A DNA stretch of 64,000 nucleotides from Escherichia phage VEc20, in sequence record MN022785.1; one strand, given 5' to 3'. Below, piece after piece: positions 41,996 to 45,341 of this stretch (its first letter is position 1; each line of letters opens with the position of its first letter). Made by a program: the position numbers and the translations under genes. The notes beneath the pieces are model-generated. The model saw only the letters and a list, made by a program, of their open reading frames with translations. It did no database searches and had not been told where the DNA came from.

Positions 41996-42274
41996 TCAAA
42001 ATGTAATTTCTAACCAATCACCATCACGCTGATCACTATTGACTTTAAAGCTGAATCCTTCTTTTCTCAGCCAATCACCAATTTCTTCAGTAATCAATTT
42101 ATCACGAGCAATACAATAATAATTAAAATGTGTTTTACCTTGTTCAGCTGCTTTATTAGCAAGTTCCGAAAAATCTTTAATAAAACATTCTAGCTTAAAC
42201 TGTTTACTTTTGAATGCTTTTTCGCGTAATTGATTAGCAAAAGATTCATTTTCATAAAGATCATACTGTTCCAT
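41996..42274 (-). CDS. hypothetical protein (T4 24.2 position)
   Basis: 92 aa; overlaps upstream ORF by 14 nt. Confidence 0.6.
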   Translation of the reverse strand: MEQYDLYENESFANQLREKAFKSKQFKLECFIKDFSELANKAAEQGKTHFNYYCIARDKLITEEIGDWLRKEGFSFKVNSDQRDGDWLEITF

Positions 42275-42476
42275 TTTTCACCTTTTTATTGATATGTCTT
42301 TTTCTATAGACAACTTTTTCTCGAGTTTCAAATTTATTCTTAGCAGTCATAGCTCGAGCCCATAATACAGCCACTTCTTTTGCCTGTAAGTTTAATTCAC
42401 GAGCAATTTCAATGAATGACTTTCCAGACTCATGAAGAGTAAACACCACAACCTCAGTTCTCATAATCAATCTCAT
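42261..42476 (-). CDS. small helix-turn-helix protein (T4 24.3 position)
   Basis: 71 aa; HTH-like segment GKSFIEIARELNLQAKEV. Confidence 0.6.
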   Translation of the reverse strand: MRLIMRTEVVVFTLHESGKSFIEIARELNLQAKEVAVLWARAMTAKNKFETREKVVYRKRHINKKVKNGTV

Positions 42477-42540: not shown

Positions 42541-42560
42541 AGAAAGGGGCCGAAGCCCCT
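42541..42560 (-). terminator. rho-independent terminator after hoc
   Basis: minus-strand hairpin GGGGC-TTCG-GCCCC followed by TTTCTTCATTTTG. Confidence 0.55.
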
Positions 42561-42565
42561 TATGA

Positions 42566-43984
42566 TTATGGATAGGTATAGATGATACCAGTTTCTAAAG
42601 CAGTTTTATGAATGATATATCCATTACGCGATTCTTGGACATCAACTTCTGGATAGTCTTTCATCATCTTCTGAAGAGTGTAACGATGCAGGTAGTATTT
42701 ACTATCTGGATCTTCAGTTTTCCAATCTTTACCTTCTTCAGTCATTTTTTGAATTTCATCCATAACCCACCAACCGCACCAGATGTAAGCTGAGCTACGG
42801 TGTGGAAGAGGATGAACATAAGGTAATTCACCTTCTGGTTCTGGAGCAACTTTATCAGTTACCTGAACTTGACCTTCTGCCGTAATAGTTTTGCTATCAT
42901 AATCAGCAGCAGTAACAGTTGCAGTAACTTCAATAGTTTGACTTCCAATAGATGAGGTATCAACAGTATATACGTTAGTTGACCCTTCCACAGGAGAAGA
43001 ATCTTTCTTCCATGAGTAAGTAATTTGTGCTGCTTCAGGTGCGCCATTAACATTAGCAGTAAATGTAGCCGAAGCATCTTGCTGAACATTAATAGAAGGA
43101 GGAGTCAATGTAACCTGTGGATTCATTGTCTTCTTATTAACTGTCAATGATACTTCATTGGAAGTAACTTCCTTTTCATTATAATTTTCTGCAGTTACTT
43201 GGGCTACGCATTTAATTCTTTTTACTCCACTTGTAGTTGGAGTATAGTTAAATGTAGAGTTAGTTTCTCCACCAACTTGTGAATCATCTACATACCACTG
43301 ATACGTAGCAGACGCTCCGTCAGGTTGAGAAGCTAATGCAGCAGTAAATTGAACCGGGGTTCCAATTACTCCAGCAGCAGGACTAGCAGGAGTTACTGCC
43401 AAGGTAGTTGTCTGTGTCTTTTTATTAACTGTCAATGATACTTCATTGGAAGTAACGCTCAGTGCATCATAATCTGTCGCAGTTACTTGAGCTACACACT
43501 TAATTTTTTTAACTCCGCTTGTAGTAGGAGTATAATTGAATGTAGCAGAAGTTGCTTCGCTCACAGGAGAACCGTCAACGTACCATTGATACGTAGCAGA
43601 TGCGCCCGATGGCTGTGAAGCTAAGGCAGCAGTAAATTCAACGGCTGTTCCGATTACTCCTTCTGGAGGACTATTAGGAGTTACAGCTAAGGTAGTTGTT
43701 TGTGTCTTATTTTGAACTGTGATAGTTGTACTAATTTCAGCTGTTTCAGCTTCAGAATCAGGAATAGTATTTGTTGCAACTACCTTAATAGTCTTTTGAC
43801 CAGCAGGTCCTTTTAATACATAATCAAAAGTTGCTGCTGATCCTTCTTGGGGAGCATTATCTACGCTCCAAGCATAGGTAATAGTTCCACCTCCAGTTTC
43901 ACCACTGGGTGTAGCAGTAAACTGCTTGGTTTCATCAATAACCCCTGTCGGTGTTTTAGGAGTTATATCAACTGTAAAAGTCAT
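42566..43984 (-). CDS. hoc: Hoc outer capsid decoration protein with four Ig-like domains
   Basis: 472 aa; Ig-like repeats incl. two near-identical 96-aa copies; C-terminal capsid-binding-like region; position before inh. Confidence 0.85.
   Translation of the reverse strand: MTFTVDITPKTPTGVIDETKQFTATPSGETGGGTITYAWSVDNAPQEGSAATFDYVLKGPAGQKTIKVVATNTIPDSEAETAEISTTITVQNKTQTTTLAVTPNSPPEGVIGTAVEFTAALASQPSGASATYQWYVDGSPVSEATSATFNYTPTTSGVKKIKCVAQVTATDYDALSVTSNEVSLTVNKKTQTTTLAVTPASPAAGVIGTPVQFTAALASQPDGASATYQWYVDDSQVGGETNSTFNYTPTTSGVKRIKCVAQVTAENYNEKEVTSNEVSLTVNKKTMNPQVTLTPPSINVQQDASATFTANVNGAPEAAQITYSWKKDSSPVEGSTNVYTVDTSSIGSQTIEVTATVTAADYDSKTITAEGQVQVTDKVAPEPEGELPYVHPLPHRSSAYIWCGWWVMDEIQKMTEEGKDWKTEDPDSKYYLHRYTLQKMMKDYPEVDVQESRNGYIIHKTALETGIIYTYP
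43133..43708 (-). repeat. tandem direct duplication (2 x 288 bp) inside hoc encoding two near-identical Ig-like domains
   Basis: plus-strand ttattaactgtcaatgatacttcattggaagtaac recurs with 288-bp offset; protein residues 93-188 and 189-284 align with few changes. Confidence 0.85.
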
Positions 43985-43993
43985 AAGTTATCC

Positions 43994-44674
43994 TTATTTT
44001 AATGTTACGAAAGAAGAATTACGTGTTTCACGAATTAGAACTGATCCGTCACGATTAATGTAGTAAATTAAGCTAAATAAAGTTTGGTGTGCCGACGCAT
44101 GTTCAAAACTAGTTGGATGAGATTTCCAATCAGGAGTTTCAGCGATCCATTGATAAATCCACCAAGGAACCGTACAGAATCCTGGATTTTTCCCCAATAA
44201 TTGAAGATTCGGGCTAAAGTTTTCCGGAAGAGTAAATACAGACGGCTTTTCAGATTCAATAATCTCAGCTACAGCTTGTTCGAATTTTTCTTCAACAAAA
44301 GGAGTATCTTCAATCAAAACATCAGTATTTTCAGGAATTTTATCCGTTTCTACCACTTCAATTTTAATATCAGATTTAACTGGAGAATCAATCAGAAGTG
44401 CTGCTTCTGGATTAACTTCTTCATCGTCATATTTTAACCCCTCTGCAGCATCAGCAGCATCAATTAAGTCTTTAATAGATAACCCATCAGTCTCTGGCAT
44501 AGGTTCACTAGCGAGCTTCTGGAGGGCTTCTTCAATATCAGCAACGATATTATCAAAAGATTTATTCTTTTTGACCTTTATACCAAACTGTTCAGCATAT
44601 TCAGCTAATTTAGCTTTAGCTTCTTTATTATCATCAAGAGCCTTCAGCTCTGCAATATAATCTTTATCTATCAT
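43994..44674 (-). CDS. inh: inhibitor of prohead protease
   Basis: 226 aa as T4 Inh; gene order. Confidence 0.85.
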   Translation of the reverse strand: MIDKDYIAELKALDDNKEAKAKLAEYAEQFGIKVKKNKSFDNIVADIEEALQKLASEPMPETDGLSIKDLIDAADAAEGLKYDDEEVNPEAALLIDSPVKSDIKIEVVETDKIPENTDVLIEDTPFVEEKFEQAVAEIIESEKPSVFTLPENFSPNLQLLGKNPGFCTVPWWIYQWIAETPDWKSHPTSFEHASAHQTLFSLIYYINRDGSVLIRETRNSSFVTLK

Positions 44675-44723: not shown

Positions 44724-45341
44724 ATGTACCACTTTGTATATGAAACAACAAATCTAATAAATGGTAAAAAGTATATAGGAAAACACTCTACTGATGACTT
44801 GAATGATGGTTACCTTGGTTCCGGTAAGGCAATTCAGCAGGCTATAAAGAAATATGGTGAAAACAATTTCTCTAGAACAATACTAAAAGAGTTTAAAACT
44901 TCCGAAGAAGCGTACATGTATGAAGAAGAAATTATAACTCCTGAACTAATAAAAAGCAAAAATTATTATAATATGAAACCTGGTGGAATTGGTGGAATTG
45001 TTATGACTACAGAGGTTATAGCAAAGATGAAAGAATCTTCCGCTAAAAGATTTGAAAACTCACCAGGCACGGTATTAGGTAAAACTTGTTACACCAATGG
45101 AACTAAAAATATTTTTATTAAACCTGGAGAACTTGTTCCAGAAGGATTTGTAAAAGGGATGGTTCATCCTAATAGAAAGTCCAGAAAAGGATGTAAAGTC
45201 AAACCGACTACCACAGGAACTTTTTGGGTCAATAATGGCGCAATAAATAAATTAATACAACCAGACGGTATTATTCCCGACGGATTTATTAAAGGTCGTC
45301 TCATGAAAAGAGATTCTAAAGGCAAATTTAGTAAGGCATAA
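44724..45341 (+). CDS. segE: GIY-YIG homing endonuclease
   Basis: 205 aa; GIY-YIG-type N-terminus (YIGKHS ... GYLGSG); position between inh and uvsW as T4 segE. Confidence 0.85.
   Translation: MYHFVYETTNLINGKKYIGKHSTDDLNDGYLGSGKAIQQAIKKYGENNFSRTILKEFKTSEEAYMYEEEIITPELIKSKNYYNMKPGGIGGIVMTTEVIAKMKESSAKRFENSPGTVLGKTCYTNGTKNIFIKPGELVPEGFVKGMVHPNRKSRKGCKVKPTTTGTFWVNNGAINKLIQPDGIIPDGFIKGRLMKRDSKGKFSKA
44724..45341 (+). mobile_element. segE: free-standing GIY-YIG homing endonuclease gene
   Basis: see CDS. Confidence 0.6.

Follow-up and report, generated by a model that had tools for sequence, protein, structure and literature searches.

The hoc gene of Escherichia phage VEc20 encodes an outer capsid protein with a second domain-2-type Ig-like unit, specified by a 288-nt module that stands twice in tandem and in frame between the first and the third Ig-like domains. 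Judging by synonymous divergence between the copies, the extra Ig domain appears to derive from an old duplication, not a recent one. The gene belongs to a common and already known allele class of a well-studied gene and is not new. The account that we favor, and which as a whole we regard as very probable, is that of a common two-unit allele with old unit lineages, a four-domain fiber and recombination at the level of the phage population.

The window, the 64,000-nt stretch of the VEc20 record MN022785.1 that was analyzed, is 97.9% identical across 22 kb to Escherichia phage vB_EcoM_G2133, a Tequatrovirus. Its relevant features are as follows.

42566-43984, minus strand: hoc, highly immunogenic outer capsid protein, 472 aa plus stop; two-unit allele with four Ig-like domains
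43709-43984, minus strand: Ig-like domain 1 (D1), residues 1-92; beta-sandwich, pLDDT about 86-94
43421-43708, minus strand: repeat unit 1, residues 93-188; domain-2-type Ig-like, 'type 1' haplotype
43133-43420, minus strand: repeat unit 2, residues 189-284; domain-2-type Ig-like, 'type 2' haplotype, the copy nearest T4 domain 2
42857-43132, minus strand: Ig-like domain 3 (D3), residues 285-376; Pfam Ig_3 / I-set at 289-373, pLDDT about 87-93
42569-42856, minus strand: C-terminal capsid-binding domain, residues 377-472; almost no variation among 56 homologues
42544-42561, minus strand: terminator-like GC-rich hairpin and T-run directly 3' of the hoc stop; AAGGGGCTTCGGCCCCTT then a T-rich tail
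43994-44674, minus strand: inh, between hoc and segE
44724-45341, plus strand: segE, GIY-YIG homing endonuclease (Pfam SegE_GIY-YIG, E 6.6e-9), 740 nt upstream of hoc, beyond inh

The gene is placed as hoc by its position between 24.3/rnlB and inh/uvsW, by an N-terminal Ig-like string (PKD / Ig / I-set) and by a C-terminal domain homologous to T4 Hoc residues ~281-376. The gene order rnlB-24.2-24.3-hoc-inh-segE-uvsW is that of T4 and matches the annotation of both T4 and G2133. Pfam matches to PKD, Ig_2, Ig_3 and I-set run along Hoc residues ~100-373, and the last 96 codons are 97.2% identical to T4 at the nucleotide level. The capsid-binding domain at the C terminus is 93-98% identical in nucleotide sequence to those of other Tequatrovirus hoc genes. 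The nearest gene in G2133 is 98.1% identical in nucleotides over hoc and 100% identical over both repeat units. The annotated terminator in G2133 and G4507 sits where VEc20 hoc has its hairpin, and no late-promoter motif TATAAATA was found upstream of hoc on the minus strand between 43985 and 44800. Sigma-70 promoter-like matches within the repeat occur at chance level (8 found against 7.5 expected). Downstream of hoc, a 71-aa ORF at 42261-42476 on the minus strand is a DUF2774 protein (Pfam E 3.9e-31) that matches T4 gene 24.3; it shares 14 nt with the adjoining ORF, 41996-42274.

The closest solved relative of the 472-aa ORF is T4 Hoc (5vf3_Z, 376 aa; phmmer E 1.5e-219), and the first-pass annotation's contrast of 472 with 376 residues is borne out by the ORF at 42566-43984 and by this alignment. 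T4 Hoc aligns in two pieces, T4 residues 1-104 with VEc20 residues 1-104 and T4 residues 93-376 with VEc20 residues 189-472, the latter nearly identical. Residues 93-188 therefore form an extra block, and it is these 96 residues that make the gene a hoc with a second domain-2-type Ig-like unit, as had been proposed.

Several searches recovered the repeat. A direct-repeat search of hoc returned one two-copy family of 288 nt (43127-43414 and 43415-43702, 79% identity), and Tandem Repeats Finder reported a period of 288, 2.1 copies, 79% matches and a score of 750 at 43127-43720. The interval 43133-43708 corresponds exactly to residues 93-284 and is the same repeat as the 43127-43702 call, shifted in phase by 6 nt. 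In the self dot-plot of hoc suggested by the first-pass annotation, the 288-nt periodicity is present: identity at offset 288 is 78.8% (best 288-nt span), compared with 29.6 ± 4.2% (mean and sd; maximum, 43.4%) at 1076 other offsets. The 288-nt repeat is real, far beyond chance, and the proposed 2 x 288-bp direct repeat at residues 93-188 and 189-284 is confirmed. The description of its copies as near-identical, however, is not. The two units share 227 of 288 nt and 76 of 96 aa, 79% at both levels; the 61 nucleotide differences fall 13/13/35 over the three codon positions, and the copies match perfectly over at most 35 nt in a row.

Divergence at synonymous sites gives an estimate of how long ago the copies separated. 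For VEc20 unit 1 against unit 2, dN is 0.143, dS is 0.711 and dN/dS is 0.20, estimates drawn from just 96 codons of a stretch that has evidently recombined. In a DNA-level comparison of 20 Tequatrovirus hoc genes, dS between paralogues within a genome (21 pairs) ranges from 0.55 to 1.37 with a mean of 0.90, while the mean between genomes is 0.30 for first units, 0.32 for second units, 0.24 for D1, 0.31 for D3 and 0.16 for the C-terminal domain. Divergence from copy to copy is thus about three times that separating the hoc genes of different Tequatrovirus phages, and the excess of paralogue over orthologue dS (mean 0.90 against 0.16-0.32) argues that the two unit lineages are older than hoc diversification, having split well before the sampled Tequatrovirus hoc genes diverged.

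The identities of individual units follow the same division. In every two-unit genome examined, unit 1 is nearer to VEc20 unit 1 and unit 2 nearer to VEc20 unit 2. At the nucleotide level, the identity of VEc20 unit 1 is 84-100% with the first units of other two-unit genes but 75-81% with the second ones; for VEc20 unit 2 the values are 85-100% with second units and 77-79% with first ones. The single units of T4 and RB3 are 91.0% and 95.1% identical, respectively, to VEc20 unit 2. In each of the 30 two-unit protein clusters, the units of a protein are 74-85% identical to each other. At the central variable patch, 27 of these clusters have a 'type 1' first unit and all 30 a 'type 2' or mixed second unit; the reversed order occurs in none.

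The two-unit arrangement is widespread. VEc20 hoc matches 656 phage records, of which 60, evenly spread, were sampled, leaving 53 after seven partial matches were set aside (three Tequatrovirus-type genes and four C-terminal-only matches from other genera). The hoc span is ~1419 bp (1419-1425) with two units in 22 of these records, and ~1131 bp with one unit in 27, T4, T2 and RB3 included; two records have an 852-bp span with two Ig domains and the C-terminal domain, and two have odd spans of 1161 or 1496 bp. Two-unit hoc genes are thus present in ~22 of 53 evenly sampled relatives, about 40%. A 100-nt probe for the unit 1/unit 2 junction hit 108 records and placed multi-unit genes in at least 47, but missed the two-unit genes of SP1 and ESh28, so record span in the even sample was used for prevalence. 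At the protein level, the best 120 clusters include 79 of 376 aa, 29 of 472 aa, one of 468 aa and nine of 567-570 aa. Motif counts assign one, two and three units to the 376-, 472- and 568/570-aa classes, with two exceptions: a divergent 567-aa protein (P0046) counts as two and one 472-aa cluster counts as one. The comparison of domain counts across relatives that had been suggested therefore yields one, two or three units.

The repeat had also been recorded before. The RB30 hoc record AY101183.1 (1570 bp) has five domain features and a repeat_region whose note reads 'intragenic repeat led to appearance of additional immunoglobulin-like domain'. None of the papers searched deals with the RB30-type repeat itself, so what was already known comes from this annotation and, more generally, from Fokine et al. 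2023 (PMC10385173), who state that the capsid-binding domain is retained in Hoc homologues, whose Ig-like strings hold anywhere from 1 to 10 domains.

To describe exchange between units, every unit was typed at the 61 sites that separate the two VEc20 units. The resulting site patterns, with their block switches, show the repeat units to be block mosaics of a few old haplotypes. The single T4 unit belongs to 'type 2' except for a 'type 1' block at nt ~221-251, near its 3' end, and the single unit of teqhad changes from 'type 1' to 'type 2' after ~215 nt. The teqhad unit is 99.3% identical to a chimera of the first-unit 5' part and the last-unit 3' part of a three-unit gene, against 95.5% for the best single parent; in sequence, it is the product expected from a unit-deleting unequal crossover. 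Simple derivation of teqhad by deletion from one of the sampled three-unit genes fits its unit only, since D1 and D3 differ (81-83 mismatch or gap columns); these flanking domains have other closest relatives, and the direct parent is absent from the sample. Three-unit genes combine the same three types of unit in two orders, A-C-B in UGKSEcP2 and A-B-C in GCA_050537045 and YOKO23, a pattern that indicates more than one expansion or rearrangement. UGKSEcP2-type three-unit genes (also found in SRR31305024) have a 6-nt insertion in D1. Single-unit proteins display nearly every combination of the three variable patches, and single-unit genes of both kinds are found, type-1-like in HY01 and IMG/VR L004 and type-2-like in T4, RB3 and L002. 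The mosaicism extends to hoc overall, with the closest relative differing domain by domain.

These data would fit either a single old duplication followed by divergence or a later unequal crossover of diverged single-unit alleles. In the second case, 'type 1' and 'type 2' single-unit alleles would have been joined during a mixed infection, and the tandem arrangement could postdate the divergence of its copies. The coexistence of type-1-like and type-2-like single-unit genes suits such a fusion, as does the spread of nearly all patch combinations among single-unit genes, by which haplotypes segregate both as alleles and as paralogues, and so does a hoc whose domains each have a different closest relative. 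However, essentially all two-unit genes agree in their unit order, so that one or very few fusions at most are needed, and a type-1 single-unit gene might just as well have arisen from a two-unit gene by deletion. Moreover, the phages that share the arrangement are separated by dS 0.16-0.3 in the flanking domains of hoc, so even a fusion would not be recent. We consider this origin unlikely.

A recent tandem duplication within the VEc20 lineage, in which a T4-like domain 2 was copied shortly before sampling to leave an unstable repeat, was the interpretation of the first-pass annotation. It draws on the exact 2 x 288 nt, the reading frame and the phasing to domain boundaries, as well as on the single unit of T4. 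Its prediction of young copies is contradicted: the copies are 79% identical in nucleotides with a dS of 0.71, so they are not near-identical at synonymous sites, and their longest identical run is 35 nt. Nor is the arrangement confined to a narrow lineage, since the same unit order is found in ~22 of 53 sampled relatives (about 40%) and in 30 protein clusters, the units are orthologous by position, and the RB30 record AY101183.1 already annotates the repeat. Synonymous divergence and positional orthology together refute a recent event, which we regard as highly improbable. Mis-assembly, or collapse or expansion of the repeat, is least credible of all: although tandem repeats are known to cause assembly errors and hoc is frameshifted or split in some records (T2 AP018813.1 and SHFML-11), the 61 differing sites let reads map unambiguously to each copy, the VEc20 ORF is intact, and the same 1419-bp gene recurs in independent isolates from many laboratories. 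In the T2 record, hoc is spread over three CDS, and in SHFML-11 (KX130861.1) the hoc span is 1420 bp with an annotated CDS of only 930 bp; these reflect either sequencing errors or genuine pseudogenes, Hoc being dispensable.

An old pair of unit lineages in a common two-unit allele, the reading that we prefer, also bears on the suggestion that the repeat could expand or contract by recombination. In part this stands: one-, two- and three-unit alleles exist in nature, and they indicate that unit number has changed by recombination over evolutionary time. Ready change within VEc20 itself is unlikely, however. With no stretch longer than 35 nt perfectly shared by the copies, slippage within the genome should be much less frequent than a near-identical repeat would suggest.

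The neighborhood of hoc offers one possible route for exchange. Nucleotide identity to T4 is 99.2% in segE, 96.0% in inh and about 89% in hoc. In T4 x RB30 crosses, SegE homing co-converts flanking sequence (PMC2330249), and the segE-inh-hoc gradient is the pattern that homing with flank co-conversion would produce. SegE co-conversion may contribute to hoc mosaicism, and we offer it as a lead.

An AlphaFold2 model of Hoc, built from 56 homologues, has a mean pLDDT of 83 and contains four beta-sandwich domains (residues 1-92, 93-188, 189-284 and 285-376) with pLDDT mostly 86-96. The C-terminal domain is poorly modeled (pLDDT 34-65), and the arrangement of the domains relative to one another is uncertain (pTM 0.53). 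Among PDB folds, the best matches to the model are strings of four Ig domains: Sidekick, Dscam and ICAM-5. At the amino acid level, D1 is 35-38% identical to the repeat units, the units are 41.5% identical to D3, and D1 and D3 are 34.6% identical. From these identities, all four Ig-like domains appear to be distant paralogues, with the unit 1/unit 2 pair as the latest of several successive domain duplications. Since the model predicts a complete beta-sandwich for the extra unit, the proposal that it lengthens the fiber is a reasonable one.

VEc20 Hoc can be compared with known Hoc proteins of several lengths. RB30 Hoc (AY101183.1, AAM52483.1) is the closest counterpart, with a 1419-bp gene and an in-frame 2 x 288-nt repeat; its first and second units are 87.8% and 93.1% identical to those of VEc20, and it differs only allelically (91.2% nucleotide identity over the gene), with some haplotype blocks exchanged in the units. 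T4 Hoc (376 aa; PDB 5vf3, 8t1x; PMC10385173) shares the gene position, the C-terminal domain, D1 and D3 with VEc20 but has one domain-2 unit, itself a mosaic, and so three Ig-like domains instead of four. Three-unit Tequatrovirus Hoc proteins (568/570 aa; Escherichia phages UGKSEcP1/UGKSEcP2) carry the same module in tandem in the same gene, with one unit more than VEc20, five Ig-like domains and a unit order that varies by genome. At the short end, PhiPNJ-9 Hoc is a two-Ig form without D3 (Fu et al. 2024, PMC11853027). An 852-bp hoc match in OQ349392.1 (KIT06) and OL770074.2 (RPN187), with two Ig-like domains and the capsid-binding domain, resembles it.

Other Hoc length variants, in Tevenvirinae and beyond, have in common with VEc20 the conserved capsid-binding domain and a variable Ig-like string. 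Self-repeats in these proteins were sought by an offset scan, as HSP culling hid even known two-unit genes from blastp self-comparison. Klebsiella phage Marfa (MN044033.1) Hoc, of 471 aa, has an independent and younger tandem Ig duplication at about residues 186-350 (81% aa identity in the best 70-aa window, offset 94); its nearest relatives HMGUkp2, F48 and PWKp16 have a 1134-bp gene. The 472-aa Hoc of Dhakavirus IME341 has an independent, older one (57% aa identity in the best 70-aa window, offset 95). Unlike VEc20, in which the domain-2 type is repeated, both duplicate the D3-type domain (about residues 165-350), in other genera and at other ages. Among the database records, 'Staphylococcus phage SAJK-IND' (32 kb) and 'Pseudomonas phage vB_PSGBLB0006' carry a Tequatrovirus hoc (92% and 89%), and the phage HP3 record is classed under Rosemountvirus; the three (MG010123.1, PV654520.1 and KY608967.1) are probably mislabelled or contaminated.

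The positions at which the VEc20 copies differ are those that vary in the population. All 20 amino acid differences fall at population-variable positions, with a mean entropy of 1.34 bits against 0.14 bits elsewhere (166 units), and they cluster at unit positions 12-16, 22-24, 34, 46-55, 68 and 78-84. By hand count, 15 of the 20 lie outside model strands of at least three residues, and such strands make up half of the unit (residues 93-188). The framework is conserved between the copies, including the C-terminal N-E-V-S-L-T-V-N-K strand. Its N-E-V-S-L-T motif stands at residues 180-185 and again at 276-281, with the S/L/T triad at 183-185 and 279-281; in domain 2 of PhiPNJ-9 Hoc, S183/L184/T185 is the reported MUC2-binding site (PMC11853027). 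In T4, one Hoc sits in the middle of every gp23 hexamer, is dispensable for infectivity and forms a fiber of 18 nm (PMC10385173).

Taken together, a 288-nt, 96-aa domain-2-type module would have come to stand twice in tandem in frame, its copies drawn from two old lineages that probably split before the sampled Tequatrovirus hoc genes diversified. Both copies would be kept by purifying selection on the beta-sandwich framework, and would differ at a few hypervariable positions, mostly in loops. The product would present four Ig-like domains, not three, on the same C-terminal capsid-binding domain, seated on gp23 hexamers like T4 Hoc. With the 18 nm of the four-domain T4 protein as a guide, the fiber would project about one domain further, roughly 4-5 nm. 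Glycans or other ligands would also meet two domain-2 surfaces that are not identical. We take as the most likely working model a fiber that would reach one Ig domain beyond that of T4 and bear these two related surfaces, and so might alter reach and avidity for glycans. The block-mosaic pattern shows change in unit number and content at the population level, which would proceed by recombination, homologous and unequal, both among phages that infect the same cell and among paralogous units.

A bolder reading, which we put forward only tentatively and think rather doubtful, is that the domain-2 module acts as a population-level cassette system. Three short hypervariable patches on the surface, at unit positions 12-24, 34-55 and 78-84, would reassort almost freely from unit to unit and from phage to phage, the count would switch among one, two and three, and SegE may speed the exchange by co-converting flanking DNA in mixed infections, generating recombination-driven diversity in a capsid adhesin.

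Hoc is a capsid fiber implicated in mucus adherence and the main display scaffold in T4 nanoparticle engineering. The two-unit feature of VEc20 is an ordinary allele, found in hundreds of sequenced phages, and by itself opens no new question. Natural Tequatrovirus Hoc proteins reshuffle a single module to reach three, four or five Ig-like domains, and knowledge of Hoc domain number helps in the choice of therapeutic phages and in the design of longer display fibers.
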